Notes under the pieces: generated by a model
The model's input: only the letters and a program-made list of their open reading frames with translations
What the model was told of the DNA's origin: nothing
The model's database searches: none
In this document: positions 545 through 51,496 of the stretch, piece by piece
Layout: each line of letters starts with the position of its first letter
Numbering within the stretch: the stretch's first letter is position 1
Assembly: GCA_000934665.2 (NCBI GenBank)
Contig: KZ538706.1
Coordinates: 1 to 52,623, forward strand
Length of the DNA: 52,623 bases
Origin: Catajapyx aquilonaris
Taxonomy: Eukaryota
Reading direction: 5' to 3'
Position numbers and translations under genes: made by a program

Positions 545-2174
545 AGAGAGCCTTAAGGGGGCGCAGTAGCAAAAATACAGTAATCAGATGGCTCTGCAGC
601 TATAGCTGTCGAAGTGAGCCAATGGAATGGTTGTACAACAATAGAAGGCAACTGTTGCCCCCTCTCCAACAATCCCTGTCCCGTTGCCAAGATCAACACT
701 TGAACCTTAGAGCCTCGCCTCGAGCCTCGTATCCAAAGCCTACATAACTAATAGCCTGAACTCTCCCTATGCGACCGATTGTTTCCTGCTCTGCTCGCGC
801 CCCTAGCAACCGGTGTGCAAGCAACCCGATACGATACGGCTTCCGATGCGATACTTTACACGATACGATACTGACACGATACGATATTGCCACTATCAAT
901 AAGCAATAACCTACATAATTATTCTTATTCTTGATGCTGCATCTGATGAATGGTACCTGTGTTAACTGTTGGTGAACAGGCTACTGGGGGGAGAAGACAG
1001 GAGTACACACGTTACACTGAAATAATTACCTGCAAATATATCATAGCTGGTTTATTACTGATCTTGTCATTTTTACAAAGCTGTCTGTTCTTGTACAATA
1101 AAATATATGATACCCTCACCTTCGCAAAGTATGCCATCAGAGTTTCTTCAGGATAATTGGGGCTTTTGACTCTGTTCAACAAAATTCTATGAATCCTTTT
1201 CAAGCCGCCTGTTCTGTGCAAGTACTTGCGGCTGTACCATGATTCGAATTCGAACGTCTGGGAGATCTCAGTGACGTCACCGGAAGTCCCTTTCATTTAC
1301 TCGCAAATCCTAATAATAATAACAATAATAATAAATATGACTTTAATAATTCTTTTTATCACTATATTGTAATATTATTATGTAGGCATTGATTATTATC
1401 TTGTTTTATTGTGTAGGCAATTGGCAGAACATCCGCTGCGCCATGGCGCCATCTCAGTGATGCGGCCGGTGTGCAAAATAAAAGTAGGCAATAGAATGAC
1501 GTCGAGAGTTCAGGCTATTTATTATGTAGGCTTTGCTCGTATCTCTCCGGCGACAATTACTGCCCCTGGCGACGACCCCAACAAACTTGTTTATACATGC
1601 AGCGTAGGAGGATTCGGCATTTCCTACATTTCTGTGGCCGTAAGCCTCAACAATGGTTCAATCGACACATAAATTGCACCAAAAAATAGTAGATGATCTG
1701 GCGCAGGGCGCCTAGTTCGTCTTTTTTTCAATTTTCGGCCTAGCAATGACCTTACAGCGAGTTGTAGTAAGAGAAAAATGGTCTTTTGGAAAGGCCCATT
1801 TTATTTACATGTTGGCAGGAATCGCATGAAAATCGGAGACATTTCTGTGGCCGTTATGTCCACAACTTCAACGCAATCATGTCGAGTATGGCATCCTTGT
1901 AGAGGCCATTGTAGAGGGCGCCTAGTTCGTGTTTTTCCAGATTAACGTCGCATTTCGCCACAAAAAAATAAAGTTCCCTCAAATACGCCTTCTGGCTGCA
2001 TCCAAATTGTGCGAGGGCATTCGAACTACAATCGTGACGCCAGAGCCAGCCACCGTTTCCACAGCAATTCAAGATGGCCGCCCCCATACGACACGTAAAT
2101 ACCCCAAAAAGACTACAGCCAATCAGAGACGACCTTACATAACAAGTTGGCGACTCTCTTCTTTAAGGTTCTCT
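545..2174. mobile_element. Putative non-autonomous DNA element nested in 383-2298, family unassigned
   Basis: Short imperfect inverted ends AGAGAGCCTTAA (545-556) and TTAAGGTTCTCT (2163-2174), 11/12. Degenerate internal direct repeats about 210 bp apart (ACATTTCTGTGGCCGT at 1626/1839; AGGGCGCCTAGTTCGT at 1705/1915). No clear TSD. Confidence 0.35.
734..1535. mobile_element. Non-autonomous TIR element with 8-bp TSD, P-element-like (hAT not excluded)
   Basis: 32-bp TIRs at 734-765 and 1504-1535 (30/32) starting CAAAGCC. Perfect 8-bp TSD CTCGTATC at 726-733 and 1536-1543. Internal CGATA repeats (828-886) and (AAT)n. No transposase. Confidence 0.8.
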
Positions 2175-2206
2175 AGGTTAGGGGCGTAACAAGCTACAAA
2201 AAAAGA

Positions 2207-2273
2207 CCTTTCTTCTTGGGGACTTCCAGAAACAAATTGAATTCAGACTTCCCTGGCGACATATAATTAGGAA
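2207..2273 (+). repeat. Local dispersed duplication of 4421-4493
   Basis: CCTTTCTTCTTGGG...GACTTCCAGAAACAAATTGAATTCAGA(C/T)TTCCCTGGCGACATAT(T)AATTAGGAA occurs at both sites, differing by a 5-bp indel, a 1-bp indel and one substitution. Confidence 0.9.
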
Positions 2274-2284
2274 CGACCCACGAA

Positions 2285-2474
2285 CTTGGAACACCATGGT
2301 GTTCCAAGGTCTGCTCTTTTTCTTACATCACATATACGTAGGCCTACATATGCATAATGTACAGTACGTATATGTGATGTAAGAAAAAGAGCAGACCTTA
2401 AGGTCTGCTCTTTTTCTTACATCACATATCCTCATTCACATTAATCACAATTGTGATTAATGTGAATGAGGATA
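2285..2474. repeat. Chain of four overlapping palindromes/inverted repeats
   Basis: Perfect 24-bp palindrome at 2285-2308. Arm 2306-2340 inverted at 2365-2399 and repeated directly at 2400-2429. Perfect 48-bp palindrome at 2427-2474. Confidence 0.95.
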
Positions 2475-4690: not shown

Positions 4691-5246
4691 CTGACAAGGG
4701 AAGTGTAAGTGTTGTCCGTGGAGTTTCTGAATGAAACTTGGGACAATAATATAGGCAGGTAAGTTATTAAAGAAAATGCAAACAATTTAGGCGGATGCCC
4801 ACAAGGTCAAAAGTTATGACCTCTCGAACTCACAAGGGACACTTTCCAAGGTCTCGCCGATTTTCTTGAAACTCGGTACATTGGTAGGCCACTTCAAGGG
4901 ATGAAAAACGCACCTAACGTGACCTGCTCAACTCTTAAATGCCGAAAACTCACCCATTTTCTTGAATTCGGTGCATTGGTAGCCCCCAAAAAGGGGTCAC
5001 CGGGTCATTTTGAGCAGGTCACTTTAGGTACGTTTTTCATCCCTTGTGGTGGCCTGCCAATGTACCGAATTTCAAGAAAATCGCTGAGACCTTGGAAAGT
5101 GTCCCTTGTGAGTTCGAGAGGTCATTACTTTTGACCTTGTGGGCATCCGCCTAAATTGTTTGCATTTTCTTTAATAACCTGCCTATATTATTGTCCCAAG
5201 TTTCATTCAGAAACTCCACGGACAAGACTTACACTTCCCCTGTGAG
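4691..5246. mobile_element. Fold-back (long-TIR) non-autonomous element or large inverted repeat
   Basis: Arms 4691-4931 and 5010-5246 (about 240 bp, roughly 90% identical by eye) around a 78-bp spacer holding a third partial copy of the CCGATTTTCTTGAAACTCGGTACATTGGTAG motif. No convincing TSD. Confidence 0.7.
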
Positions 5247-6528: not shown

Positions 6529-7091
6529 TTATTTGTTTGTTTTTTATACCCCATTGGGAGGAGGTGTGGTGGCCGAGATGGTAACGTCTCGACTTGCTGA
6601 GTGAAAGGTCCCAGGTTCGATCCCCGCCTGGGAGCCACCTTTCGTCTGACCTGCACCAAGGAGGTGTCTGGCAACCTAACCTCCTGGGGGACTGCACATG
6701 GCCCAAAGGCTAGGACATTGTACCTGCACAAGTGTCCCCTCCCCAACAATCCATATCCCTACCCTACATCCCTAATTATTCCTTGCACGGTGATTGAAGA
6801 AAAAGAGAAAAAAAGGATTCTATATGATTGTAATCCACTCCCCTATAAACCCTAATCGGGTTATCACGAATCGGCGCTCCATTAGGGGTGTAGAATACCA
6901 CCATTGGATCAAGGATAGGGAAGGAAGGAAGCGGCTGTGGCCTATTATACGGAAGCGACCCCGGAATTCTCCTGGGGGGAACGTGGAAAACCACAGAAAA
7001 CTGCGGTCAGGATCGCAGGTCCCGGGATTCGAACCCAGGACCTCCCGATTAGCAGTTGGACTCCTTAACCCCTACACTAACCTGCTTCGGT
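6529..7091 (-). mobile_element. tRNA-derived SINE, family 2 (interrupted by a family 1 copy)
   Basis: tRNA-like head with 7-bp acceptor stem, GCT anticodon loop and B box GGTTCGAATCC. Central domain shared with the 43309 copy. A-rich tail at 6529-6546. 15-bp TSD AATATTAATG(T/A)AAGT at 6514-6528 and 7094-7108. Confidence 0.85.
6556..6878 (+). mobile_element. tRNA-derived SINE, family 1, copy A
   Basis: A box TGGCCGAGATGG (6570-6581) and B box GGTTCGATCCC (6614-6624). Highly similar to copies at 9270, 40885 and 51497. Flanked by CCATT (6551-6555, 6879-6883). Confidence 0.9.
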
Positions 7092-8829
7092 AAAATATTA
7101 ATGAAAGTGGGACTTCAGAAAAATAATATGTCCGCGTAAAAAACACCTCTGACCTAAAATTTAAAGTACAGGTTGACATGTCCCACTGCCAGGCGGCAGC
7201 ACTGTTATGCCTAATATAAAGAGCTGCGGGCCAACCCTCTGGAGAGACTCCAGCCGGCCTCTCTGGTGTAATAATCGGATAATAAAGTGCTGTCCGACCG
7301 ACACCAACTGGTTTCAGTCTTTACACCCACGCACAGCGACTGAAAGACATGATGTAGCTAACACCTCAAATATTCCGGAAATATTAATTATATCACTAAT
7401 AGCTATTAGTATGCAATGAAGCAGATATTTTAATTCATTTTTTGTACACAATCGGCTTTGAACAGATGATTCTATTTTTTGTACTCCTGTAGAAGCGACC
7501 CTTTTCCAGATTCTCCACAATTGCACTTCATATTGCATTACCATGGGCAACTTTTCTGTATAGCGCTCACACCAGTCAGAGACATTTTTGCATCGAAGAA
7601 CTTGATCGACAGTGATTTATTTCTGAAAGTAACTTTTCCAACACTGCTCAGAACTTCCACTATCTCCTTTCTCCTATACTCAATTGAACTCTTTCTTTCG
7701 TGAAACGAGCAAAAATACTCCAGAGATCCAAGCTGAAGGAATTCGTCGCAAAAAAAAGTAGTCGCCCACATTCCATATAAAATAAAAATGGAAACGTATT
7801 CAAACACGTCAGGATCCGACAAATCTAACGTCTACATGCAGATGCTTGCGTCCCTATTCTGTATGACAAAAAGGAGAGAAAATTGCTTTGTCCTCAAGTG
7901 GAACGAGTAGTCTTCCCTATCCGACTAGCAGAATTCAATTGCAAGCCGGGGAAAAAGAGGAAACCGAGTTTCTCTCCTGCTCGGAAACAACCAGGAACAG
8001 TCAGGAATACAAATGGCATTAATGTAATCGAGGAATACAAGGCTTGGGCCAGGGAGGGTGGGTGGGATGGAAAAAGTATCGCAAAAGAAGAAGAAGAAGA
8101 AAAAAATCATCGAAACACAGTTGCCTGTTCAGTAAGAAACCAGTCATAAGTTGCAGTTGTGGCGGCGATGGTGGAGAGATGGGAGGAAGGGGAAGAAGAG
8201 AAGTACAGAAAAAAATGTACCAAAAAAGGGAATTGGGAGCGGGTCCTTCCCGTGGAAAGGGCCACTCGGCGCGAAAGCCACTTTCATCTTCCTCTTCATA
8301 AAGTGGGGAACGCCGGAAAAGTCGATTATTGTCGATAACCTTTGAGAACAACGTAAAGGAACTACCGGCGGTGTTTCTGGGGAAATGGCTCGCGAATAAT
8401 GACACGTGAGGGCGTGAGTGGAGGAAAGAAAGGGAGGTGGTGTATAAGTCTGGGGAAGCTTACTTTTCTCCGGAGACTCCTTTTCTACGCTTGCCATTCC
8501 GCAAAACTGATTTTCTAAAGCCCGTCGCTACGGTTATACACTCGGTAAAAGTACTCTATTGTCAGCTATTATTCTCAGGAATGTTGTGGTGGTGCTTGCT
8601 ATCAAGTTGAATTATTTGCTTTAAAAAAGTATCAATGTGAAAAATATTAGGCGCGTGAAAAGTACTTCCGTAACGCCAATTGAGAAGCACCAACAATATT
8701 AATGACAATTACTAAAATTGTGCTGTATCACTTCCGACTTATTTCTGCTTAGACTTGAAGGCCAGCAATTCCACCATCTCTCACAGGTTTGTGGTAGAGT
8801 GTGACAGTTCTTAATGGAGTGTGATGGTA

Positions 8830-8948: not shown

Positions 8949-8950
8949 TA

Positions 8951-9091: not shown

Positions 9092-9119
9092 TACATCGTA
9101 GGAAGCTGAACTGGCTGTA

Positions 9120-20818: not shown

Positions 20819-21680
20819 ATGAAGGCTGAAGAGATCTTCCATCACCTGGTGACCATAAGCTCCTTTAGTTATGTGCCTGGTTTACCAGCAGAGACCTATG
20901 CACTGTAAGTTACTAAGTAACTTACAGTGCATGGGTCTCTGCTCTTGATATGTTACAAAGGGGTGCAACAAGTCTTGTTGCGCCCCTTTGTAACATCAAG
21001 AGCAACCTGGACTCTGCTACTGTACAGTACCCGAAACACTTCGACGGACACGTCAGCTTATTTCTAAAACGGATGGAAAACTAGAGGGGTTACCCTCGAG
21101 TTATAATTACTTGTTCTGTCATACTGAAGAACACCGAAGATCAGGATATAAGGGTCACTGCTTTTAACAAAGTACAGTACTGACTCAATACTGACTACAC
21201 CTACAGTACTCGTATACCGAGGGGCTAGGCAAAGTGGGTGCGGCGGGGTGGAGTTTCGAGCCTCAATGTTATAGCACTACATTTGATTAGTACATTATTA
21301 TGAATAGTAGACCTACTTGTGGTAGTAGCTTGTGCAACGTTAATAACCAGAGCAGCTCTTGCAATTTTTCCCCAAGGCCTTCCGACAAGAGGGTTTGTAG
21401 GGGTTTCGTGCAGAGAGTTATCACACTGGATGAGCTGCTTTCACGCCCAGACTTCCTTCCGGAGGATACTCTCACAATTACAGTCAATGGATTGTTGGAA
21501 ACCGGCTATTCCTTAGCTAAAGAACCTATTCGGTCGCCAAGAAAATGGAGGGTGCGTTTCCACTAGGACTGGATCATCTTACAGTTAGATGAAAATGTGA
21601 CCCTATACAGGAGAAGGAAACTGTCGGAGCAACATGACTGCTGCCGGAGGAAGAATAATAACCGTTTTTAACAATATAAA
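20819..21680 (+). pseudogene. MATH-domain pseudogene, probably MATH-BTB (SPOP/roadkill/TDPOZ-family-like)
   Basis: Reconstructed translation: MKAEEIFHHLVTISSFSYVPGLPAETYAL* [63-bp palindromic insert] VLLRPFVTSRATWTLLLY [+5 bp] PKHFDGHVSLFLKRMEN*RGYPRVIITCSVILKNTEDQDIRVTAFNK [putative phase-0 intron 21172-21350] SSSCNFSPRPSDKRVCRGFVQRVITLDELLSRPDFLPEDTLTITV. This follows the MATH motif order (TIxxFS, WxLxxYP, VSLFL, GF, FLxxDTLTI). A frameshifted LYRRRKLS/MTAAGGRIITV at about 21603-21670 weakly resembles a BTB start. A TTTTCAG acceptor lies just before the ATG. Stops at 20906, 21082 and 21564. Confidence 0.8.
20887..21004. repeat. Back-to-back double palindrome (A-A'-B'-B) inside the MATH pseudogene
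   Basis: A 20887-20914 and A' 20916-20943 match 27/28. B' 20940-20972 and B 20974-21004 differ by 1 mismatch and a 2-bp indel. A' and B' overlap by TGCT (20940-20943). Confidence 0.93.
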
Positions 21681-29388: not shown

Positions 29389-32215
29389 GCAAATCCCCCT
29401 GTACAACGGAAAGCAAGATGCAGCAAATCGAAGTCCAGCAGGGTCCGGGTCGGGAAAAGGTCCGGGAAGTAATATACAGCATTACCGAACAAGAGTGTAC
29501 GTACATGACCAGGAGTAACGTGAGCGGCTGTGTAAATTGGCTGATGAATCAAAAGTAGGTTGGCCAGGGGGCACCACTTGAAGACACGCTTCGCACGTCT
29601 CCTTTCTACCCGGTCTTACTATATTGCACCTACGATAAGCTCGGCCACCCCCTAAAAGTAAATCACATGTCTGGGAGTCTCTCCTGTGTGTCCAGCAGAA
29701 CTAAACGGATCTTTAATGGCCAGTTTGCCTCTTTTGAATGGCACTTTATGGTACGCCGCAATTCCCAGCGCCAAGCAAAAGTCCGCACGCAGGAGCAAGG
29801 CCGGTGGCCAAATGAAGGCCTTTGGGGTGGCCCTGGGACCACTTTCAAAAAATCGAACCCTTTTGCCAAGGAACTGGCTCTCCCTTATAGTCCTATTCCT
29901 CTCGCTTTTTCCCTGGCTATCGGTTACACACTGGATCGAGGGGGAAAAAAGGAAGGGAGATGAGCTTAATGAAAAAATTGAAAACCTACGTACAGGAAGC
30001 ATATATCCTACTGGGATACCGATATTCAAATGGATTTTTGGCATAGCTGGAAGCGGTTATATGCTAGGAAGTACGATACTGCAGGTACGACTCACTATAA
30101 TGCAGGCCATATATAAGCATCAGACATATGCTGAATAATATTGATTAAGTTCCACCAATATTATTTCACCAGATGTTCCACATTGTTTTCCTTTCGCTAA
30201 AATAAACTGCACATTATTTAGGCTAGGGAAAAAACACTGTTATGAAGGCCATGCACAACGTGAAAAGCATGTCAGTTTTATAAAGTTCAATAATTCATGT
30301 ATTTTTAATATAACCTATATTTCTATAAGAATATAATTATTACACTATACCTCATAGCATTTTAAACAATTTCAGACAAAAACCATAATGATCTGTTGAA
30401 TCACTTAACAAATTATGTAGACTATAGTTAAAGTTAAATGTCTTTAAATCTATGCCAAAGGTTCCTTCCAGATATACAGTAGGTTTACTGTTTCTGTTTT
30501 ACAAGTAGGAATTTACTGTACAGGCACAGATGGATGATATTACTTTTAAAATGTAAATGAAGAATTTATTGATATGCAGAACAATCTGAGGCACATTCTG
30601 GTTGAAATTGAATAGGCAGTGTTTAATACGTATAGCACCCGAAGAGTACTTTCTGATAGTCCAATTAGATTTCGGATAGAATAATTACACGAATAACGAA
30701 TTTGTGAAAAGCAATCCCATTATGTGTAATGCTCTCTTCGACCCTAACTTCATCAAATTAATGCGACCATGATAATGCTTGAGGCCTTTACATACATTTT
30801 GAATATTTCTTCAGGCTTCAGAGCTTGCAGTGTCTCACACGGTTCCAGACTGCTGCTTATGCATTGAACTATACAGTATCTCGATGCAGAAACTATTTTT
30901 GTGAACACTCGGTACAGTACACCTGCTCACCTTCTATTATCTACTAAGTTACTAGTGTTCGTGTCCAGTTAAATATCGACTAATGCAGTAAATGAGTTTG
31001 CATATAATTTATCAGCTATTTGTTTTTGAAGATGACAATCTGAATCTTATCCGATTATAAAAATTTTGTATAGGAGAACTAACTGTAATATTTAAAGTCA
31101 GGTTCCTCTCATCGCCATATCTGAGTCCCACCCAGTCCGGATAACTCACCGCGATAATCGAGGACGATTAGAAGCTCGGCAAGACGCGGAGTCGTCATGC
31201 CTTGCGTATAGTAATTTCTGAGGCAGTATACCATACATATGAATGACATGACAAATCTTCTCTTGCCGAGCTTCCACTCGTACTTAGTCATTGCCGTTGG
31301 TGGTTGGTTATGCGGAGATATTGGCATATCTGAACCTAGGCCTACACTATTTTCTACGTGCTTAAAGTGAACTTTAGTTCCCGTCTCTCATAAGACGAGT
31401 ATACGTAAAAGCTGTTAATAAAATTATCCAGGCCTATAATACTGTACATAAAATATAGGTTTTTCCTACACCTGTGCTTTGGCAAACAGTAGTTTCATTT
31501 TACGCCACTAATTATCACGCGCACTCCAAAGTACAGTACCTCTAGGTAACTTTAGTCACTCTTAAACACGTGAAACTTGGTCCTTAGAAGAGAAGACGTT
31601 TTCCACGATAACTCCGGAAGTCTGGCTCACTCGGATACTACATTCTCCTTGAGGATATCTGACAACAAGAGATAGGTACCAACACCAATTAGGAAGTTTA
31701 GACTTTTCTTGTTGTGCGAGAATGAAAGTCGTGTCATTGCCCCCTGAGAGCCTTTATCTCACCATCTCTTATGTTTTAATGCCAGTGTGCTTGCACTCAT
31801 GATGAATTATAAAGCCAACATATTATCATAACAACACGCACTACAGTCCCATAATTAGGAATAATGATTTTTTTACTATTGTATGTAGACCTGATAAGCA
31901 GAACAATACGACACATTTTGGTAGAAATTTTATTATCCAATGTCTTATACATACCTTGAAGGGTACTTTATGATGGTCAAGCATTTTCCTGATAGTGCTT
32001 TAAGATATTTTCGAAAATCAATACCATAAATAATAATGCAATCTATAAAATTAAAATATTCACAGCTAAAAACCAGTAAAAACCAGCTCTGACCGTTCTG
32101 TATTTCAGGCTTTCAAAAATACTTTTTGTTGTTACTAACAGTTAGTGTCATAATGGAACATATTTGGCTAAGCTCCTGAAATAAATTGTCCCAGTGCTAC
32201 AGCAATACTAGGTAC

Positions 32216-32379
32216 AAGTGTTGGACATTAATCGAGGCATACTGCTGGCGACATTTTCCGAAGCGGCAGAAGAACGAATCGAAGATAAGGATACTGCAAG
32301 CCGGGCTAGCAAGATTCCTTCTTCTGCCGCTTCGGAAAATGTCGCTAGCAGTATATGCCTCGATTAATGTCCAACACTT
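32216..32379. mobile_element. MITE-like fold-back, 164 bp
   Basis: Arms 32216-32280 and 32313-32379 (about 65 bp, few mismatches, one 2-bp indel). No TSD found. Confidence 0.55.
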
Positions 32380-35300
32380 ACTGTGGCACAATATTATTCT
32401 GGACACTTTGACTTGATTTCTTACGGGAGTGTGTCCATGATAATAATTATTGTGGCCATAGTACCGTGTCTGCAAATCCTGATATATGAAGGCTCCATAG
32501 GGTGCGGAAATTGACAAAAAAACTTAAATATTCGACCTCGAAGGAAGATTACAAAAATACACTTGGCTTACAAATTGAAATAGAGCATATACCGTACCCT
32601 GTACTGTACATTGGAATAAAACTCCCCATCCCTGACAGAATTTTTAAAATCCGCTTACGTTCTTTTTAAACACGGGCATGAAAGAGGCTCGAATCTCAAC
32701 TAGGCAAAAACCATGCCTATAACATTGCATTCGCAAATTGTAAGGTTTTATATATGGAGACAAAGCATCTTCCAGAGTTGGAACGTCAACAGGCCTACTT
32801 CAAGGTAACCCTTCCAGAAAAGCTTTACTTTATTTTGTTTGTGAGAAGACAAACTAATTCAGAATGTTAACGCTATTAGCCCATGTTTGAACAAAATGGA
32901 CTTATGTGCTGCACTTTCACTCTGAGCACTTTTATTATTTCTGGCTGATATTATAAAGCACTTTCATCAACAGTGAAAGCACATCATTATTTCAAGCTGC
33001 GAATGCAGCCCCTGTACGTTCTCCCACTCCTGTACAAGCATTTAAAGTGGATGAACTGAACAGTCGTGTAACCATGTACTGTCCAAAGAGCGGCTTTAAA
33101 AAAAACTGCGGCAGTAACGAGTGCCTATAAACGGCTTTAATATTCGACGACCAGAGGTGATGTTCTGAACCTTCCTCCATTGTGGATTCTATTCAGTACA
33201 TTAATATACAGCCGCACACAATGTGCTCCATATATAGACCCCCACCTACTGTAGTACGTGATGAATGACGATTCTGCGGTGTCTGGCATAGTATAGAACT
33301 GTAGGTCATGAACCCAGGAGAGCCAAATATCAAACTGGCTCGGAACAATATTGCGACGACATTATGCAGCACTAACGATGTAGAATCTCGCTTCAAGTTT
33401 CCGGAGACAAGCGAATTATCAACATTCACATTACTCTGGAAATGCAGAGGCCAAGTCTGAGAGAGCGAGCGTAATGTTTGGCAGCGCCCGACACATGGAC
33501 TAATTCCCACAGACCTCTCTCCACACAAGACAAGGTATGCTTTTCCACGGGGGGTATAATTTAGCGATGCGGAATGGTCACATCGGCCGGGTCAAGAGGC
33601 AGGCCAGACCATCTCTCGGAAATGCCTGAAGCTCCCCGTTAGAGTTACGAGACACCATCACATCCCCTCAAGAAACGACAATCGATTCCCCCCCAGTTTC
33701 CACCACCAACCCTACTTCCCTCCTCCCACCACCTCCCCCGCAACCCCCTCCTCTCGAAACGAATGAACCATCAAATTGGAGAGACTGTCGTTTTACTAAC
33801 CATTACCTCAAATTGCGAGATTCTGAGGCTTGTCGGTAGCCCGCAGGGATTATGAAAGCTAAAATACGCCGGGATAAATGCCAATTAAAAGTGATTAGAA
33901 TCGCGCCGAGGGATGTCCTTGATGGAACTCCAGCTTCATACAAGCGCGTTACACTAACTGCAGTATACAGCAAGTACTGCTAGAGTGAGCAGGTGTCTGT
34001 GACGTCATGCGCCAACTGGCCTGCTTTCATCATATGCAGCGTCGTTCCCAATTTCTGGCCTGTCTTTTAAAATATTTTAACTATATATGGACTTGGAGCT
34101 CCCCCTTTTAAATGCGCTTCCAGGCAATACTGGAAGGTGCAATACTTGAAGTTGCATTTCAATCCAGGATCTAAGCCCAAATGATATGAAATCAAACGAT
34201 AACCCAGCCACACCCGACCAGGTCGAAATCGGAGCTCGATCCTGACTGCTACAAGTATCCTAGTCAAGCCGGGGCGCCAAAGCTACTCAGGCAGAGAGGA
34301 AAGGACCGGAGGAGAGTGAAATCCTCTTGAAAACTTCCACCAGAATAATCCCTTTCCCAAAGCCCCTCCCCGCCTCCACTCTGGAGGCAATATTGCAAGC
34401 GTAGGCCGGCTTTCCTATTCAAGAACTTGTCTCCGGATAGATAGAGCAGGCTCGTTGGTCATCCAAGACTCTGCTTCCCATCTGTGGCCCAGAGTTTAAG
34501 GCCACTCTGGGATAGAAGTGGGGACCAGGGATCGAGAAGGGTGGGTAGGAATATTTAAAAAAAAGAGGAAAGGGGAGAAAAGTAACATCTCTTTAGTGCA
34601 TCTCCAAAAGCGGCTCGAAGACGAAGAGCATTAAATCAAATAAAAGATGACGAATGGATATATTATGGGTTATTCAAGTCAGGAAATCGAGGAGAATTCG
34701 CTACCAAAGCCCCGAATTGCAGTAAATCAAGGACATTACCGCCGTATTACCACCTTCTCGCCCACATGGAATTCTCGCAAAATCCTCTCACGAGTCGAGG
34801 CCTGGTAAAGGTCCCGAGAAAACTGCGGAGGGGCCGGAAAGGGAGGAGGAAAAAAAAGGGGGGGAGGAGGGAGAGAATCTATAGAGCAATGCAATCTTCC
34901 GAAAGAGTTTCTCGGTCACTGGATTCCGAGCATTAAATAGCTTTAGCAAATTCTGGAAAGAAAATGTGATGCCAGCTCGTACTTGCGTACCTGAATGTTG
35001 GGAGTTCCACATATGACAGGGTAACTGCTATAAAAGAGGAGAAACTATTTCCGTTCTATACCGTGAGAAACATTGCTTACTTCACTTTTCCAGCGTGCTG
35101 CCTGAGAAACCCTTCAACCCAGTTCGCAGAAAACGCCGTTTCCTGTCATGCTTCGGTACCTGTTCCTACCAAGATGGTGAACACAGTGTCAGACCTGGTG
35201 ATGACCGCCTGACGGGTGATCAATTTTCTTCATCTACTGGTGCAAAAATTATTCTAGCTCCCCTGCAACAAAAAATGGCGGAAATTAGAAACTTAAACTC

Positions 35301-38300: not shown

Positions 38301-40884
38301 GCTGGGTAACAAAGTACTGGCTATTGAGGGTCAAAGTCCAATGGTGTATGGGGGGTTGAATTTTTAGGGGAAGGGTGGGGGGAAAGGGAATTTTCTTTTT
38401 GCAACTATAATGGGCGGAGTCCAAAAGTAACATTAGGAATCGGGGGAGTAAGAAAGTTTGTTGTTTTGATGTCTGCAGTTGATTCATCAGTGTCGATGGG
38501 GATCGATGAGAGGGAAAAGTTTTGTGGCCAACATACGCTGTGACACTTATGCCATATTTTTACGTTGAATGTAGCCTTGACAACAAATAAGTACAAACTA
38601 TTCAGAATAAACTATCACCACACCCCGTCAAAATCATTTCCATGCGGCGTATTACACTTTCATACAGCTTTCATATATCCAAATGACTTCCAGCATTTGG
38701 CTTGATTTAAACCAATATCTTGACTAAACAATAATTTGAAATCCATTCATCTATCTCATATCGAATCAAAATATACGAAACAAATCAGTCCTTCATTCCT
38801 GACTAAATGCGAGGCAAGTATAGGTCTATAGGACGATTAATCCAGGGCAAATGAAAACATGGTTGAGGTCATGAAATTTGGTTTGTACAGCGCGAAGGGC
38901 ACACCACCATGCAGCTTACCATCGTTCAACTTGCGTGAAGTGTGCTTCCTTTTATTCGACAAAGTGAGTTCCATTTTCAGGAAATGAACCACTGATAGCA
39001 TTTCATCGCTCCATCCATTTTATGTGCAGAGCCAAAGATCAACTTCGGACTGGCCAGACATGCTTTCATCATTAATTTTAATCGCATAGTGGTACCATTT
39101 TATTGTTGTGGAGATCAAAAGCCCGCAGCCCGCACAAACCACGTTTGTAATTACTGTATTCTAAGCTTCAGTTAATGGCCAATTTGAACTGTATTGCCTG
39201 GACATATGCACTTCACAGAGCGTGAAAGTGCCATCTGGTGTTACCAGGGATATGTTTGGTGTTCACTGCAGGGGCTTGCTTAAAAGCAAAATATCACTTC
39301 ATAATTTTGCATAACACAGTCTGCTGCGGGAGATTTAAAGTGTAGCTCCAAATTGCATAATTATGTTAGAAATTGCCGTTTTTTTCACGTAGTAGCCTAC
39401 TGTTCCAGTTCTATTTTAAATCACAGTTAAAAAATGGACTACGCAGTCTGTATCTATGCGGTGTCAGAAAAAATCAGAATGAAGATACAGTAGGCCTACT
39501 TCCTTTGAAGCCGAGTTCTCTGGTTTCGGTTTTACTATTATTCTATATTGAGAAATATCTCTGGTTTTATGTAAGCAGCATGATTAAGTAATATAATATA
39601 AATACTCGGGGGGTTTATTTTCGAGACTCATGCTGTAGTAATGACAATGCAGCTTAAAACAAACTAGACTGCATAATGTCCACCAGATCATTATATGAAA
39701 TGATGAGCTTTAAAATACTGTAGCCTACACGGCTCAGGATGGCACCGAAAACTGAATATGGAAAAGAAGATAGTGTAATCAGATTCCGAATGGGGACCGA
39801 GGTTTACATGCGCACGCAACTATTGTGAAGAACTTGTGACCAAAACCAGACTTGTGGAGTGGAAAGGAAGAAGAGCTCAGCTTTTGGTTGACAAAAGCTA
39901 CTTGCGAATGTACAATAAAACGGCAAATATTTGAGTTGTAAATAGAGCAATACCCCAGAGTAGGAAAAGGAACTGTCTCATCCCTTCAGTATTTTCCTCT
40001 TTCAGCAAAGGGTATACTTAAAATGCTATTATAAGAATGGTACAATATTTTAATTTCCATATACTATATAATGCTGCTTAGAATTAGGTTTCTTTTTCAT
40101 ATTAATATTATCAAGCCATCCATCATTAAGTGAAGCTTCACAGTTGCTGCACTGTTGAAACTACATAAGTAATTTGGAATTTTTACATACAGTGTTTGGA
40201 AAATACGATGCAATGTGTCCATGACGCAGTATGTTTGTGGAGATTAGTCACTGCATTATTTCGCATTATTGTCGGTTTTTGCTTGCATAATCATATAGGC
40301 CCAAATTAACAGAGTGAAATCATTTTGCAAATATCATATATGAACATAGATCTTAAATTCTTACAACCGTAATTCAGAAATGAATACCGTTTGGCCATAA
40401 ACATGATTTAAAATATGTTTTTAACAAAATTCAATTTAGTCACCTGATGGTGCCTATCTTTAGCATAATATTTATCGAATCATTTTCGCATAATTATGGA
40501 CCTTCCAAAGAGTTACAGTCACTTCTTTTGACGCAAGGAGGAAATTTCTGGCACAGGTGAGAGCCTATGGAGTAACCAAACGACGAAACAATAGGCTTGG
40601 TGGCGGGAATGCTCGACATAAGCTCATAAAATCTGGTATCACAGTTACAAAAATGGTTAGATCGATATGATGCTAAAGATATGCAACATCATGTGGCTGT
40701 ATTTATTTTCCGGGTAAACGCTTTAAGCCAATTTTACGGCTAACCGGTACTTATTTTTGGAATGCACCGATGCATGGTTTAAAATGATGTAAAAAGTAAC
40801 TGGGTAATCACAGTAAATGCTTTCATGTTACTGAACAATGTTCTCGGATTTGAGAGTGATTCAACAGTTACAATAACGTCAAAT

Positions 40885-41241: not shown

Positions 41242-43308
41242 AATAACGTCAAATGTTATAATGTAGTAATTTTCATGACATGTTGGATTGCTGTCTTGTA
41301 TAGCCTTGACATTAAATGCCAACTTATGCGATGCAGTAAATTATGTCAGATGTGTTGAATGTAAGTAACACTTTTTCTGCAGGCAAATGTCCCATTCCCT
41401 TACAACTTTTAGGGTTCATTTTTGTCCAACCTGCCATAACTATTCGCAAACATTCCAAACATTGTGCAAAGAATGTGCACGAAAGTTTTCAGAAGGGCAT
41501 ACATCTTACCCGGCATTTTTGAGCCCTTCCACGCACCTCTCAAAAGGAGGTTCCAGCCTGTAATCGTATTTCACTGGCAATCTCTCATCGTTGTCGCAAG
41601 ATGGCACGAGAGCTGACAACACGCGACCCCGCTTCACGATACCGAAAACGGCTCGGTTTTATTCAGGATTCCCATTTCCATCCACCTCACGCACCACTAA
41701 AATTAACTGCCCAGGAAGCTACTGTCACGGATCACTCAAATGTCCATAAAGTAATAAAAACACAATGCACCTGTAAAGTAGTGGCAGAAAATTTTGAAGT
41801 GCAGTTTGGCACGTCGTAACGGCCCGCGAGAGGTGGGATTAGAACAGCCAGGACCCTTCCAAGCGATGAATTGTTGGGTTTAGAACCGGATTTGTAGAGT
41901 TTGGGGGGGGGGGGGGGGTCCNNNNNNNNNNNNNCGATGGATAGTTGCAACCATAATCTGCAGTTGGGTCTGACGACCTTTAAGCAAGGGAAGGGCAAGA
42001 GTGCTCTCGAAACCTTATTTGATCAGATTGTGAGCAGAGCTCTGCCGGGGGAGAGAGCTCTGAAAGAACCAATTAGAGCGAAACGCTGGCAAAATGGGGC
42101 CCGCCTTGAGGTCGCCAACCACTTTTGGCGACACTCGTCGGGCTTCCAAAGGTAATAAGCCAGGCCCCTGCTGGCAGTGGCCGCAGACTTTGTCCCAGAG
42201 ATCCTTCCATCCCCCTCCCACACGACATGCTGGAAGCCACAGAATGTAAGAAGGAGGAGACTTCAAGCATGATGGAGTGGCCATTCTTATCCCTCCCAGC
42301 ACTTCAACACTCTCGGACATTGGATTCTGGGAATGTTCACTGGGGTCTAGCAATATCCAATTTGCTGGCTCGCCTCTAGGACGGCATGTGCTGCAAAGTT
42401 TGCTTCTGTCTTACTGCATGTTACGAATGGGGGTGCTCAGCAAGTTGAAACAATCCCTTCCCTCCCCTCCCACTTGGCGGTTTTGCATAGACAAATGAGC
42501 CGGGGGAGTGGAAGGGCCGTTGTCAGGAAGACACGGATTGCTTCTCCAATCTTCAGCTGATTAACATCGAAATGGATGGACATTAAGGCACTGTTGGCCT
42601 CCTTGTGGACCATGCACATCTGTGCAGTGCAAATGGGACGATTAGACGAGTATTCATGGCATTAAGTTCGTTACACCAGGTTGGGCATTTTTGACTGTAT
42701 ATTCCGGCTGCTCTAATTGTATAATGGGCCTAATAGTCTTTGTTCTTCCGAGTATAATTCCTGTAGAGATCAATAGTATTTGCCAAAATATCATCACAAT
42801 CGTAATAGACATTAGAATTTAGTTCTTAGGCCAATTATTAATTTTTAAGTAACTAGAACGCTTCGTCTCAGTGTTTCTTCTCCTCATCTATCCTAAATAA
42901 TATATTGCTGCCTCCAGTATACGTGGCTAGAATAATAATTAATGACTACGCTCGCGCGCGTATTCCGTCTTGTGATATTGCAAAATTATGAAGTACAAGA
43001 TTATGGAAGCATTGAGAACGTGTATTAGCCTAATAAGTACATCACTTTTAACCTTCCATGAACACTTTCAAGTACAATCTTAGGCAGAATTACAAACTTG
43101 GATAAGTTATACGACTATCTGATAATGTTTCTTAGCCGCCAACGGTTTATCGCTATAACATTATTACTGCACCTAAACTTAATGATTCATCAGATTATTA
43201 TTATTACGTTAAGATTTTAAAGCCGGGAGCATATCCTAGCTAGTCAAATTAAAACGTCAGTGACTTTAGCATTTTGTAACTTGGTTATATGAATATACAG
43301 GGTGTCCT

Positions 43309-43714
43309 ACCGAAGCAGTAGTGGTGGAGTAGATATGGTGTCCGACTGCTTACCGGCAGGTCCTGGGTTCGAGTCCCGGAGGCCGGCGGTCCTGAGCTTG
43401 GTTTTCTCTGGATTTCCAAGGTCGCCCCATGAAAATTCCGGGACCGTACTGTAAAATAGGCCACAGCCGCTTCCTTCCTTTCCTTGCGCTGGAGGAGGTG
43501 CGGTGGAGCTTCTGGCCCGCGCCTAGGGGGGTGTCTCTAGCTTGGCCCCCTGAGGGAATGCACACGGCCCCCACCACAAGACAATGCACTGCACCAGTGT
43601 CCCTCCCTCTTATCTCTTCCCTGTCCCCCGCACCGGAGAGAACGAAAAAAGCATAGAAAACCTCCCTACATTGACTACTAGGTCTCAAGGGGGTACCAAA
43701 AATAAAGAAAGAAA
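43309..43714 (+). mobile_element. Chimeric tRNA-derived SINE (family 2 head and central domain, family 1 body and tail)
   Basis: Starts ACCGAAGCAG like the 7091 copy, has B box GGTTCGAGTCC and the shared AATAGGCCACAGCCGCTTCCTTCCTT. 43526-43607 aligns to the family 1 body (41008-41093). GGGGTAC plus A-rich tail. Flanking repeat GAATATACAG at 43291-43300 and 43715-43724. Confidence 0.85.
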
Positions 43715-44050: not shown

Positions 44051-44130
44051 TATGAAAGGGTAGGAGAAAGAAAAAAGGCTGCGACTGGTAGCAGTCGCAG
44101 CCTTTTTTCTCTCTCTCCTACCCTTTCATA
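44051..44130. repeat. 80-bp hairpin/palindrome
   Basis: Arms 44051-44087 and 44092-44130, 4-nt loop, one 2-bp slip and one mismatch. Confidence 0.9.
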
Positions 44131-44463: not shown

Positions 44464-44502
44464 ACTGTAGAGCAATATAATTATCCAATATTGCTCTACA
44501 GT
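44464..44502. repeat. Short perfect inverted repeat
   Basis: ACTGTAGAGCAATAT (9-nt spacer) ATATTGCTCTACAGT. Confidence 0.8.
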
Positions 44503-45950
44503 TGAAAATTGCGGCCATTTGCTGTTAGGATTAGGTTTACTATAAAATAATAATGCTTCGCATTTTCTTTTTTTTCTTTCAAAATATCGATGAAAAACAA
44601 TTACACGCAATCTAACTACCATAAAAGTGTAAATCCATTTTAATGTCTATACCACTGATAATGTGACTTAGCATGTAACAAGTACCACTACAGTAAAATA
44701 CATTCCAATCAGAAAATTTGCTATCAGTCGCCTATTTCCTGGGAGGTAGGCCTATTTCAGTTGGTACAGTACAATACGTATTCACTTAGACTTCTCAACA
44801 AAACTTCACTTGTCATTGAACAAAAAGTGCTCCGCAATAACGACAGTACTGAAGTAAATTTTGCCATATCACCAAGTAACCTGGCATAGAACGTCACGCC
44901 CTGAGACATACAACTTCCTTCCTCTACCCTTCACCCTCCCCTCTTCCTCCACTTCATGGCTCCAGGACAGGTAATGTAGCAGTGAATTTCATACCCTCTG
45001 GCAAAAGGATTTCCAAACAAATCCTACCCATATTCCAGCCCCATTCCTTCTCTCCCTCACAAAAGTAAAATATTCCTTGGCAAAACGCTGCGACCCCACT
45101 TTATTAACCCTTGGGCCTTTATGAAGAATGACTTATTTATCTCCCTGCTCTCTCCCTCCCCTCCTAGACAGCATGCTCAATAGTAATGTAGGAGGAAACA
45201 TCTTCTTTAATCTCGACTCTGAGAGGTATAGTATAAGAGGAGAGTAAGCGGTTGTTGGCGGCGATCCAACTCGGCGCCAATGCTCGGTAAAGCCTTTTAT
45301 AACGGCCCTTTTCTTTCCGTTGCTGATTTGCAGGGGTCCAGGATGCGACCCGTCAACTAAGGAACTTTTTCCTTCTTGAAGACGATCCTTCAGGACTTCG
45401 GGGATAAAAAATGGGATCTAATGAGTTTGGAGAGGGACTCACTCCGGCCTAATTGAAACAATTAAGAATGTTTTTTTTGTTGCAACCAGGGTCGAAGGGT
45501 GTCATCCCTGCCGGCACTGGTTAGCTGGGAATTGTCATTGAAAATGATCAACAGTTGGAAGATGTAGACAGGGTGGTACACTGTATAAGTTGACCTCTTT
45601 CTAGGAGTTGGAGAGCAATGGTAATAACAATAAGTAATGGAAGCTAATTGATATTATTTTGTTGACAAAATATCAAGTCTCACATTGAGGCGTCTGAGTC
45701 CGATGGTAAGTTGTTTGAAAAATATGCAGTTTCTCTGTTTCAGAATTCCTGAGCAGTTGCCATATGCTTTATTTAATTGTCAGTATAAAGAGAATGATGG
45801 AAACCTGTCAGACATCGGATAACACAATAGAACAAATCCGCCCTATACCCGTTGCCAGCATGACGTACTTTATATGGAAGATCAAGTGGAATTAAGGATT
45901 GATTTCAGTGAATATGAATAACATTCGCTGTTATAAAGAGAGCATGAAAT

Positions 45951-46199
45951 GAGGGGTGTGGTGGAAAAAGGTGATAACCCACAAAAATAAAAATTTTCAG
46001 GAGAGCGAATTTAAGTTTGAATTCTCTTAACAAACCATATAAGGGATGCGGGTTTGATCTAGTTCGTGTGGCCGTCTCGTGCATGATACGTGGACTTGGA
46101 GTATACCGAACTCTTTGTCATGTCTTTTACAGAGTTGCTAGGTGTTTATGTCAATAATGACTAAAAGTAGTGTTATCACCTTTTTCCACCACACCCCTC
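45951..46199. mobile_element. MITE with 4-bp TSD and GAG...CTC ends, Sola-superfamily-like
   Basis: Perfect 28-bp TIR GAGGGGTGTGGTGGAAAAAGGTGATAAC (45951-45978, 46172-46199). AAAT on both sides (45947-50, 46200-03). Confidence 0.75.
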
Positions 46200-48607
46200 A
46201 AATGTACCACATATTTTATAATTTGCAACTCGTGGCACCAGCAGCAGGACTAACGAGTTCCCAAATATATGCTTCGTTATTTCCCTAATGAAAACCACTT
46301 CAACATTACAATACGAGGTGCAGAAATGTGGGTGATTTTATATCGAACCCTTAATTATGCTGCACTTAATATAAATATCAATTATTACATAATGTGGCGC
46401 GCGCTGTACATATAGTAAAAATTCTAACATTTTTCTCTCCAAATGAAAACAGTATACTGTATATTCATATGAACAAAAAAGTTGACTCAATCATATGGCG
46501 AAACACTTTGCCTTAGAGAAATAAATATTTAAAAAAGTGGACAAGAAATGCATTCCATTTTGCTGCTGTCAAGAGTACGCAGTGTGGCACATGAGCTGAT
46601 TTTCTTACCAGATTTATGAAACATTGAATCGTCTTTCCTCATGTAAAAATAATGGGGGAGAGGAGAAGAAAGGGAATTGCGTGATAAAGACGGAAAGTGG
46701 TTCTTAAGAAGGTTATAAAAATAGCTTTCGGAGGATGAAAGCAAGGCCTCTGAAATATTAATCATATCCATGTGTAAGCTCCGAGTGAATAATTGAAGAG
46801 ACAACTTCTCCGCCATCTCGGACGTTTATGGAAAGTAATGGGCTCAAAAAGCTCAGAAGAGGTTAGAACTATATTTTTGGTTTCCCCAGCTACCACTGGA
46901 ATTTGGACTTACTGCAACGGCGTTACTGTACATACTCGAGGATGGGCGAGTCCAACATTGTAGTAGGACATTACCGAAAGTTGTGACGTCCCATCACTAG
47001 ATGGCAGGAGTTTGGGTTTGGGCCTGAGGGGAACTCTTTGTGAGTTCAGTTGTGTTGTGGCCGGGAAGCAGGCTTGTCTACTAAACGGTTGCTCCGTACC
47101 CATTGTATTATTATTGGACCACGACCACGACCCTGAGTCGTCAGGGGGATGACCTGATGAGGTCAACCCTCACAAAGTTCATCTTACAGAGCCATATGAA
47201 AATCTCGTAACATTGCAGGATTTTTTTTATAAAACCCTTACAGTCGATGGTAGTGTTAAATATTAGAAAGATCACAAATGGCTGGGAAATTTGATGAACA
47301 TTTTTTGCCTTTAATACAGGGTGTCCAAATTTTCAGCCGAGTAGGCAGATGACATTCAGACAAATTTGAAGAGACTTGTGGCACACCATACACAATTATT
47401 GAAACAAGCCCCACGTGGAGTATGTCCCTCTCACCGCATACCGCCAGCAACCACGCTCATCTATGACATACCATATATCCCGATAAGGCCAAACATTGCC
47501 CCGCTACCTGAAAAAGCACGCTTTTACTGTGCATATCACTTTCCTCGGCATTAATATAGCTCACGCGTGAGGAAAGTGGAGTTGATAGTTTACGACTCTC
47601 GCCGGTCTCGCTATCGACATTGTCGCCCCGTTCCTCCAATCTCGTGACCCGAAAAACAATTTGCGGACACAATATGGAATGAGAATAGGAACTAATGATT
47701 TAAGGCCTCAGATGGCCATCTCTCTCGTGTGGAGGGGGTGGGGAAGGTAGGGGAAAGAGAGTGGCATGTCACTCCATCATTTTTACCCAACCGGCAGGAT
47801 GATTTACATTAGGTCGAATAAGCCTGCCATAAAGTCGTCCAGTCTTCGAAATCCTATTGGAGGAAAAATAAGGTGCTATTGCCGAATACTTTTTTTTGTG
47901 GCTAGCAAGTTGCAACCAGCGGGTTCGGTTTTAATGACGAGGACGTGTGACCCTCGTCATTTCTTAATTGTCGCTTTTGCGACTCAAATCTCGACAGAAT
48001 TTTCCTTCCAGCGACACAAAAAACGAGACCATTTTTTTTTTGCTTACATTACCCCTGTAGCAAATTATTATTCCGCAGAGCTTTCCAGGAAGATGTACAT
48101 TCGCACACTTTTCAAGGAGCACTCTAATTGAATGCAAATGAAAATTAACGTCAGTGTTCATTCCGGAAAGAAAGTGCCGTCGCTGGCAGTTACGAACGCT
48201 AGGAAACATCACGGGTGCAGGGCTGCATGAATTTCAAAAAGACGCTCGCAGCACCGAGAAGCAGCGTTACCTTTTTACAGCCGACTACGTGGATATACTT
48301 TCAATCTCAACGCATCGGCTTAAAATGAGCTTTACCTAGCTTAAGTCCTCAAGACCAGGTTTTTTTCTTAGTCGGTCGATTAGGATGTTTTTATGAAATT
48401 GTTCATAGCACTTTAGCCGGATAATCAGTGGGGTATGATAGTTTTGAGTCACCTTGTGGAAGGTTTCTAGGTGCATTTTAGAGTCGACCTATTTCCTGCT
48501 GGGTGCATAATGAATGCCGCGGTTCGTTTGGTGCACAAGAGACAATTCATCAAGGGAATTTTCTTAGTTACGCGAAATCCACCCCCTCTCCCCCCTCCAA
48601 AAACGAG

Positions 48608-48627
48608 GAGAGAGAGAGAGAGAGAGA
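48608..48627. repeat. (GA)10 microsatellite
   Basis: Read directly. Confidence 0.9.
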
Positions 48628-49589
48628 CTTAATGCAAATAAATGTACTAGAGTTTTCTCAAATTACGCCCTTGGCGGGCGTTCCAGTTATTAGCCTGGTA
48701 GGAATTCCAAAATCTCCATTGTGGAAGGGGGGGGGGGGGNAGAGCAAAATGCATTTACAACCTGGAATCCCAAGTTTCAAAAGTAGGGGATATACTTTTA
48801 CCCCATTACGTTTCGTCTCCTTTACGATCGGGTTGAACTTCTTGAGGTACAAATATGCAGCCCTTGACATTTTCTGCGCGGCATTTGCATCAAATCCCGA
48901 CCAAAGTGCGCTTTAAACTGGTATAAAAAATGCCGCCACCGTTTTTATTTGACATATTTAAAGCAAAACTGCAGACCACTTGGTCATAAAAAGTGGAACG
49001 TAAGCAAAACACCTGTAAGTCACCCTCCTTTTTTTATATTTTTCCCTGTGTGCCGACACCTGGAGAGGCCTTTAAATATGGAACAGATGATAAATTCTGC
49101 TTTCTGGGAGCAAGACTATTGCAGTTGAAATATGGATTCCAACGGAAATTTTTATGGAAACAGTTGCCACTACTACAGTGGGCTGCAGTGTATTCATGAG
49201 TGCCAGCGTTGCTTTCATTTTCGGTCTGCTCTCACCAGAAAGTCAGCAGGCATTACGACAGTACGTATGAGCTAGAAAGTTTATGTGATTGAGAAATAAT
49301 GTGATGAATATACTTAGTCGTTTTAATTTTAATGCAGTGCGCAGTGGTGGTATTTTACAATCCTCGACTTTTCCAGCATGTGTTCTAGTAACGTGACAAT
49401 TTGGATTTATAATAAAGCTGAAATTGCTTTTGCAAACTTAAAATTGGTCACAAAAATAACTGCATTTTTTGCAGATGATTTTTTCAACCATGATACTGGC
49501 AATAAAGGAACCCTACGTACTTACATGGGGGACAGCTGTCCACTCCATTTGCCTCCTCATCTGTGAAAGTCCTTTGACTTCTACTGCAT

Positions 49590-49817
49590 ACCCATTTCAT
49601 CAGAAAACTGCTTCTCGCCCACTTTTTCCATCAGTCTGGTTGGCCTTGCCGTACTTGGACCGCAGTTTTTTCATCTGACACTCGATCTGTCCGCTATTGC
49701 AAATCACAATCACGCCCGCTTTCTTCATCTCCTGTGCCATCTCCTGCAGGACATTCCGCTTCTTGCACAGCTGATGGGGGAGGTTCTGCAATCAGGCTTA
49801 GAATCTGCGCGGCTCCA
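49590..49817 (-). pseudogene. Degenerate Myb/SANT-like (trihelix, Myb_DNA-bind_4 type) domain, possibly a Harbinger second-ORF relic
   Basis: KKRNVLQEMAQEMKKAGVIVICNSGQIECQMKKLRSKYGKANQTDGKSGRE fits the pattern (W)xxIAxxMxxxG..QxxxKxKxLxxxY..xxSG. Frameshifted WSR/QILSLIAE lies upstream and FSDEMG downstream. Multiple frameshifts and stops. Confidence 0.65.
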
Positions 49818-51496
49818 TAACACACCCTGTGATGTTTCTCAACTCCACTTTGGACAAATGCCACACCACCTTGCGAGCTGTAGGGATTCAAGGTGATCAT
49901 ATAGTCCCCCAGCGGAATATTTCGATACTGCTGATAGTTTCCAATCTGAAAATTACAAATAAATAAGGCACAATCTTTAGGCATGTAAAATATGCATAAT
50001 AACGAAATAATTACAGATACTGTATTAGCTTTACACTGTAAGCTTATGTCTGTCGGTGATGCCGACAAACTTTTCAGGAATAGCCCGCCTAATGCAATAA
50101 TTGTTTTCAATTTATAGTAAATTGAACTCATCATTGGGGGCTAATGATTTATATCACTAATATAATTTATAGCAAAGATATTCTCCACGTAAATGCATTT
50201 CAGTCATTGCTCGGATTACTAACGAGGGATAACATGTTCATATTTTACTCAACTGTAATTGCACACAAAATTCAAGCTTTTGAACATCATAATAATTATT
50301 TGACTACTCTGTCACACTTTGTATTACGTATAATACATCATACATTGAGCATGACACTACATGACTATGCTAGCACAGTTTTTAAAAATCCCACCTGTAA
50401 CTCCCTCTAAATAATTGTAAGCACTATATCAAACCGTTACACACTAATAAGGCACTGTATTGCTATACTGTACGCATACTATGAACATATTATGTTCTAT
50501 CAGGCTTAGGCTCTGGCTTAGGTTTTAAATTGCAAATTAGTCAAACCAAATTTGTGGCATATACTGTAACTACACATTGCATGGTTCATTACTCAAATAG
50601 GTGCAGAAGTTTCAAACACTATTATTTTGTAGATTAAAATGAGTCGACAGTGACTTATAATATTAAGTTACGCTCGTAGTATATTTATTTGATATTAGAC
50701 TACTATTGTGTATAGTGGGGTTTGGTGATATAGTATGCTTATGTATAGGTTTTTTATTTAATTGTTTGAATTTATACTTTACATAATAATTCAACCCAAA
50801 TAATAATCGTGGAAACATTTCCTGGAAAATACTGCGTTACAGATTTCTCGACTGTGAGGTCATGGGTAAATAACTTATATGCAGGTGAGTTTTACAGATG
50901 CACGCTGCCTCGGTAATTCGGTAACTTAAGATATTATTTTCCCACGATTCAGTTGGTACTTCATTTTCTCTCTTATAGGCGGCCAACAAAAATTGGGATA
51001 TTGTTTTTTTTTCTGAAGTTAAGATTCTTTTGTGCAGTAACTCAAGTCATGTCATATAGTGGCGCCCAAGCTTATAATGCAGCACTGACCCACTACCGGC
51101 TGTGGGTCAGAGCTTCCTCGGATTCATAATCGAGTAGACTCGATAATAAAATAATACATCGATAGAAACAGTAACCTCAGTCAAATTCTCTAATAAAATA
51201 ATGATGGAAATAAGGTTATACGCTGGGAAACTTAGCAGAAGATAAGGGTCGGAATTCCCCATTCGCCACCCTGACATGGCCGGATGCTTTCCTGCTCTAC
51301 ATATACTGTATATTGGGAGTATATATACCGGCATCTGTGCCCTACACTAGTACTCTGTAGGTCAGAAACTAGTACTTTTTGTAATTACAGTACTCTCGTA
51401 ATAATGCTCTCTTGAAAAATTGCCATGTAATGAGGTATATCCATGTTACAAGTCTGTGATGATTCTGTACTTCTCGCTTCAAGAGTAAACAATTTT

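Follow-up and report, generated by a model that had tools for sequence, protein, structure and literature searches.

Excess of TACAGTA/TACTGTA in a Catajapyx aquilonaris contig and its probable link to excision of CAG-ended transposons

The contig and its TACAGTA/TACTGTA sites

The stretch analysed here, called the window, is the whole 52.6-kb contig KZ538706.1 (positions 1 to 52,623, forward strand) of the Catajapyx aquilonaris assembly GCA_000934665.2, which comprises 286 Mb in 20,583 contigs. With an AT content of 57 %, it contains short interspersed elements (SINEs) and small inverted-repeat elements, and a Pfam search with 42 of its 53 open reading frames (ORFs) of at least 100 amino acids gave no match, small exons being outside the search. 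Dispersed along it are the words TACAGTA and TACTGTA (together TACWGTA, or CWG sites), which a preliminary description of the contig had taken for excision footprints of mariner-like transposons. Exact word counting yields 41 sites, where about 39 had been counted by eye; the positions quoted at that time all hold, except that the site given as 30474 is actually at 30475.

576..51392, no strand assigned: all 41 sites, dispersed
576, 2360, 6502, 13423, 19294, 21023, 21173, 21202, 30475, 30872, 30913, 31532, 39486, 43720, 43923, 44689, 44765, 51386: TACAGTA (18 sites)
11068, 12399, 15785, 15953, 18340, 21018, 23437, 26509, 30514, 31440, 32602, 33247, 37106, 37345, 39152, 39716, 43447, 46455, 46924, 50018, 50466, 50562, 51304: TACTGTA (23 sites)

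The excess of these words in the window is real. Base composition predicts 9.1 sites, close to the earlier estimate of near 10, and Markov backgrounds of orders 1–4 predict 5.3, 8.0, 9.1 and 16.3, respectively. Among all 7-mer pairs, TACAGTA/TACTGTA deviates most strongly at order 3 (ln P = -32.5) and at order 4 (-15.4), and only poly-C ranks ahead of it at orders 1–2. The excess is specific to the C-W-G filler, of which both central variants stand above background, with 18 and 23 occurrences where 8–9 are expected together, and among the 64 possible TA-NNN-TA fillers CTG (23) and CAG (18) rank second and third after AAA (25). The surplus amounts to approximately 33 sites, or one per 1.6 kb. 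The flanking sequences of the 41 sites are unrelated to one another, and the sites therefore do not represent one repeat family; nor is their clustering significant (10 gaps of 200 bases or less versus 6.3 expected, p 0.07).

Genome-wide extent of the excess

In a genome sample of 60 stretches of 10 kb taken from larger contigs (600 kb), 260 sites were found (0.43 per kb), as opposed to 79.5 expected at Markov order 2, so that the excess is genome-wide rather than specific to the window. It makes up 69 % of the sampled sites and equals roughly one site beyond expectation in every 3.3 kb; extrapolated to the genome, this comes to some 86,000. The footprint density of one per 1.5–2 kb proposed earlier thus applies to the window only, which is 1.8 times denser than the sample (0.78 versus 0.43 per kb; resampling p ~0.011). 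The words TACAAGTA/TACTTGTA are enriched approximately 2.7-fold as well and could match CTT or CAA element ends. No report of a genome-wide excess of TACAGTA/TACTGTA in an animal was found in the literature covered, most subscription papers lying outside that coverage.

Candidate parent elements

In a census of TA-flanked inverted-repeat pairs over 652 kb, which includes nested rows and TTAA-type elements, CAG leads all other ends with 9 of 55 rows, in agreement with the earlier proposal that local CAG ends match the three-base filler. The CAGGGTG ends then considered are, however, not the only relevant type: the family that matches best as a parent is CAGTG-ended, with a DDE fragment of Tc1 type. 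The following candidate ends and elements lie in the window, those belonging to MITEs (miniature inverted-repeat transposable elements) among them.

381..505, + strand: left part of a CAGGGTGTTCC-ended MITE, TA followed by a CAG end; multi-copy CAGGGTG family, end at 383
32213..32380, copy at 32215–32378: hairpin MITE with CAGTG(T/C)TGGACA-type ends, both slightly damaged
43296..43308, + strand: TACAGGGTGTCCT adjoining a SINE, putative truncated CAG end
47315..47336, + strand: TACAGGGTGTCC…, putative solo CAG end

Of the three mariner-like ends originally named, that at 381 is a genuine multi-copy CAGGGTG end, whereas those at 43296 and 47315 have neither a partner end nor a homologue in the window or the compared loci. 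Three TA-duplicating, CAG-ended families could be aligned, with CAGTG, CAGGGTG and CAGTAAAAC ends, and they differ in target. The CAGTG hairpin MITE, whose window copy is flanked by G-TA … TA-C and has an additional TA in the right arm, shows a G in position -1 at 42 of 46 ends and is a candidate parent family of the sites of the form G-motif-C. The CAGGGTG family (51 ends; A 34 and G 10 at -1, T at -2, A at -3) prefers AT(A/G)-TA, and the 600-base CAGTAAAAC-ended MITE prefers AA(A)-TA. A further, CAGTGCTGGACA-ended element with G-TA … TA-C flanks (L127) holds a 138-amino-acid C-terminal DDE_3 fragment (E 1.5e-12), which would tie the CAGTGCTGGACA end to a Tc1-type transposase. The TA-flanked DDE_3 elements L127, L103, L108 and L125 have CAG, CTT, CCT and CAA ends, respectively, and all are broken or truncated. 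The same census of 55 rows (652 kb) contains no GGC-ended parent.

Flanking sequences and target preference

When the 260 sampled sites are read in one orientation, the left flank is symmetric to the right at each of the eight positions tested (lowest p 0.087), as expected of a palindromic target and not of one-sided element ends. In the pooled flanks, G is preferred at -1, T at -2 and A at -3. The rate of the motif is 22.6 per 1000 G-TA-C sites, compared with 3.7–12.5 in the nine other contexts; flanking G and C co-occur beyond independence (odds ratio 2.7, p 4e-4), and G-motif-C is found at 11 of the 41 window sites but at 5 % of plain TA. When the target profiles of the three CAG-ended families were fitted to the motif flanks in a mixture model, the log-likelihood gain was 51.2 for the sample and 21.4 for the window, whereas it did not exceed 8.2 in 200 random draws and was 0–5.2 for six control fillers. 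The model places 36 % of the sampled and 52 % of the window sites on family targets.

Stacked motifs and special sites

21018..21029, no strand assigned: mixed stack TACTGTACAGTA in which a single TA belongs to both motifs; no slippage repeat
39486..39498, no strand assigned: mixed stack of TACAGTA and GGCCTA with one shared TA; two candidate scar types
2306..2399, no strand assigned: hairpin whose arms differ at the mirror TA, with TAGGCCTA in one arm and TACAGTA (2360) in the other
43447..43453, no strand assigned: TACTGTA within a tRNA-like SINE (~43308–43717), arisen from TACCGT by C>T decay and no scar

The stack TACWGTACWGTA occurs 3,941 times genome-wide, against 269 for the reversed control and 858 if the motifs were independent; a rate of 0.9–1.4 % per TA following AG or TG would give about 1,100–1,700. 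Among the first 50 double motifs listed, 25 repeat the same filler and 25 mix CAG with CTG. Since slippage yields same-filler stacks only, the mixed ones speak against it. Mixed stacks with TAGGCCTA (the TACAGTA+GGCCTA type) number 7 in the 600-kb sample. The hairpin at 2306..2399, which is unpolarised, is suggestive: most simply, a single ancestral TA context would have received two unlike scars. The site at 43447 was considered as a scar inside the SINE and rejected, since the 29 other aligned copies all have the same length and its origin is CpG decay.

Insertions at TA and the indel spectrum

Among 32 copies of a young MITE, 3–5 % from consensus, 5-bp insertions account for 2 of 72, neither of them CWGTA. 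At two G-TA-C sites of this MITE, 52 insertion alleles were collected genome-wide (13 and 39), including 15 of +TA, 3 scars of the G type, 8 that share one 2-base variant, probably by inheritance, and a single example each of TACTGTA, TATACAGTA, TACAGT and TACAGTGTA; the sole TACTGTA allele is also a perfect tandem duplication. The 5-bp peak of CAGTA/CTGTA indels predicted by the preliminary description is thus absent from the young MITE, and its view of footprints as a major mutational class goes too far, at any rate for the recent past: in the young repeats tested, canonical scars make up a small part of the mutations and are not a dominant class. As the young MITEs carry few CWG scars, most such scars would be older than the young families tested.

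With TA duplication forced, pattern tests returned no allele at SINE site 1 and three at the hairpin-MITE site, all G-type and none CWG, while three alleles at a SINE G-TA-C site included none that duplicated TA and no CWG. An all-against-all indel spectrum shows no 5-bp peak (94 of 1,727 events, two of them TA→TACWGTA), its events being neither independent nor polarised. No heterozygous 5-bp indel is visible in read contigs over 30400–50390, which represent one sample and from which rare variants are dropped, so that this absence counts neither for nor against such indels. Over this interval, the read contigs of four runs of that sample have almost no differing letters in unique DNA, a pattern suggestive of a source that is haploid or strongly homozygous.

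TA-duplicating insertions are, as a class, clearly present in this genome: the related words TAGGCCTA, TAG(G/C)CTA and TACCGGTA were seen directly as insertions at TA and each face many empty partners.

L189:171; L170, L172, L173, L178, L179; L120:2262; L207; L208; L209: insertion loci of TAGGCCTA or TAG(G/C)CTA

Both TAGGCCTA and TAG(G/C)CTA outnumber TACWGTA in young repeats. The commonest insertion allele at TA sites is +TA (TATA; MITE copies L132-L160), for which filler-free excision or slippage is possible. One TA of the CAGGGTGTTCC-ended MITE is a hot spot: it is plain in most copies, holds TACCGGTA in L006:1556, contains an intact 635-base CCG…CGG element in L004:1560-2210 and, in the window copy (446–453), bears the 6-base TA-duplicating insertion TACTAGTA; the L004 and window copies have a neighbouring variant in common. 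In the tandem array L026:1967-8150 (contig C1500), one of eight units has the CAGTG hairpin MITE at a TA where six of the eight have TACWGTA or a one-letter variant. The array is unpolarised, and its use as a trio of empty, occupied and scarred sites was dropped because the direction of change is not polarisable.

Origin of the surplus

We consider it likely, on mostly indirect grounds, that the surplus consists mostly of fixed germline excision footprints of CAG…CTG-ended, TA-targeting Tc1/mariner elements. Such an element would insert at TA and duplicate it, as seen here for three families. Its excision by staggered cuts, as established for Sleeping Beauty and presumed here, would leave three-base donor overhangs, in whose end-joining C:G, A:A and G:C would be paired. 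The central A:A mismatch could be resolved either way, giving TACAGTA or TACTGTA and a net 5-base insertion, and the scar flanks would retain the target preference of the element. Several families may have contributed, chiefly the CAGTG-ended (G-TA-C) and the CAGGGTG-ended (AT(A/G)-TA) ones, and the chemistry acting in the germline would be that of Sleeping Beauty. Scars would then form roughly 35–70 % of the sampled genome-wide sites and 50–80 % of the 41 in the window, while CpG decay, element ends, copies in tandem arrays and chance would account for the remainder. The earlier equation of sites with footprints is upheld in part, by the enrichment and the target-matching flanks, but fails at 43447 and is doubtful for the 7 of 41 sites that may be 5-bp tandem duplications.

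Direct tests were made with an automatic rule, which accepted a non-tandem insertion at a plain TA with at least two empty partners among alignable homologues. Two clean insertions of the motif are known: a plain TA is found in 17 of 18 informative partners of L123:1265 and in 32 of 32 of L021:1407, where an extra TA is present. Several observations weigh against an origin by excision. Insertions make up 2 of 51 testable CWG sites and 11 of 574 other TA-NNN-TA words, so that the CWG rate is not distinguishable from the control; 45 of the 51 are shared or substitution variants, many in loci chosen for repeats. For none of the 41 window sites could an insertion be demonstrated, and 43447, the one that has many homologues, did not arise as such. 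Pattern tests, five in all, at single TA positions within repeats brought up 58 insertion alleles, of which one was canonical. The 36 % of sampled sites placed on family targets falls short of the 69 % count excess, and with a gain of 18.4 the CAGTG target profile also fits the TAG(G/C)CTA sites, so that a flank match indicates a shared kind of target, not a unique CAG parent. Among G…C sites, A at +2 (26 of 42) exceeds T at -2 (17 of 42), a lean favoured by tandem duplication and a hint that some duplication has occurred. Finally, no intact autonomous CAG-ended element was found among the 30 of 102 DDE_3 matches examined. Given the outcome of the insertion test, canonical-footprint membership is probable for the word class but not proven for any single window site, each of which is a candidate only.

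The words might instead be the outer ends, alive or decayed, of elements with TA+CAGTA termini, which we take to be pogo/Tigger-like. The 600-base MITE with CAGTAAAAC ends does give TACAGTA at both ends (1,553 search candidates), and some 5–8 of the 260 sampled sites are such ends; the symmetric flanks contradict this source, and a search within 3.5 kb, with at most 4 mismatches allowed in 20, revealed no inverted partner for any of the 41 window sites. Element ends as the main source are thus largely refuted, and we regard them as very improbable. No more credible is CpG deamination of TACCGTA/TACGGTA. It is proven for 43447 and some other repeat sites, and TACCGTA itself is enriched about twofold at a CpG observed/expected ratio of 0.72, but the sister decay product TACCATA numbers 70 against 260 for TACTGTA, which refutes decay as the main source.

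Five-base tandem duplication or slippage (TGTACA giving TG-TACWGTA-CA, or TACAG microsatellite seeds) has somewhat more in its favour and is nevertheless improbable. A perfect period-5 ten-mer contains 38 of the 260 sampled and 7 of the 41 window sites, many young-MITE insertions are tandem duplications, the one canonical allele at the best test site can also be read as a duplication, and L069 has (TACTG)3 versus (TACTG)2. The other 222 of 260 sites are not explained by tandem copying, yet still reach 2.8 times expectation. The tandem share of 15 % is at the high end of, but within, the control-filler range of 1–17 %; 5-mer doubling generally occurs at about 1.1 per 1000, as against 7–18 for rotations of this word; and CAG and CTG are mixed in half of the first 50 stacks listed. 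The strongest of the alternatives, though still unlikely, is a protein-binding site under selection, or a non-transposon repair signature at TA, partly multiplied by old tandem or segmental duplications. One third of the sampled sites are neither chance occurrences nor on family targets, one ancestral site has been copied in 6 of 8 units of the C1500 array, and an ACAGT repeat is reported to lie near genes in Trichoplax (PMC2871265). This explanation does not predict the match to element targets or the stacking with a second TA-bounded word, and the sibling words TAGGCCTA, TAG(G/C)CTA and TACCGGTA have been seen directly as TA insertions.

A broader reading, which we put forward only tentatively and as a whole think rather doubtful, treats TA-bounded words as a layered fossil record of transposition. 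An older CAG-ended wave might have left up to ~86,000 canonical scars, or 3–6 per recognisable element, and a younger wave might be writing TAG(G/C)CTA, TAGGCCTA and +TA; the filler would be predictable from the terminal three bases of the parent, and scars would attract further hits, seeding mixed five-base repeats. If this were so, extinct transposon activity could be recognised and placed in order for any assembly from word counts alone. As such, the footprint is textbook knowledge and its mechanism is known; its possible scale is less usual, in that transposon traffic uncounted by repeat annotation may make a non-repetitive 7-mer the top outlier of the word spectrum. If confirmed, excisions would exceed surviving elements several-fold and would be a modest source of frameshifting indels (~0.15 % of bases, extrapolated).

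Other repeats in the window

6554-6810, 9397-9625, 40883-41158, 51494-51727: tRNA-like SINEs, family one
6917-7092, 43308-43717: tRNA-like SINEs, family two
4691-5246, 8840-9265, 22921-23074, 45950-46200, 2707-2764: small palindromic or inverted-repeat elements, family unassigned
10247-10396: tandem array of a 30-base unit, five copies without any difference

Over one of the SINE families, the summed contig depth reaches approximately 370,000, as against approximately 27 for unique DNA. The identity of the five 30-base copies indicates a very recent expansion.

Comparison with known systems

The termini of MITEs presumed to be pogo/Tigger-like share with the sites described here the same word, present at each end, and one such family occurs in this genome; they differ in that a one-sided flank with an inverted partner characterizes only ~5–8 of the 260 sampled sites and 0 of the 41 in the window. 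In Trichoplax adhaerens, (ACAGT)n is a tandem microsatellite near genes, and the word 'footprint' is absent from the available text (PMC2871265). The five-base unit is the same as a rotation, whereas the copies in C. aquilonaris are mostly single and the doubles mix CAG and CTG; no head-to-tail ACAGT array is present among 8 tandem-repeat rows, and 34 of the 41 sites lack even a period-5 ten-mer.

The closest known counterpart is Sleeping Beauty, whose excision, after staggered cuts and end-joining, is described as leaving exactly TACAGTA/TACTGTA (PMC6943129; bioRxiv 10.1101/659086), with TATA, TACTA, TAGTA, TACGTA and TATGTA as minor products (bioRxiv 10.1101/659086). The identical 7-base words occur here in both central variants, together with CAG…CTG-ended, TA-duplicating elements, and alleles of all five minor types are present, several of which can also be read as tandem duplications. 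In contrast to the single experimental scars of Sleeping Beauty, the C. aquilonaris words would constitute a natural fixed load of tens of thousands, derived from several families, with a G-TA-C-preferring family prominent among them and with excision deduced from sequence.

In rice species, natural excisions of DNA transposons have been presented as a genome-scale source of small indels, identified by alignment of two genomes and mostly messy, with 8 of 94 perfect and the others showing deletions and fillers (PMC4423477). The present analysis likewise treats excision as a genome-scale source of indels, but it concerns one stereotyped word and proceeds from counting in one genome.

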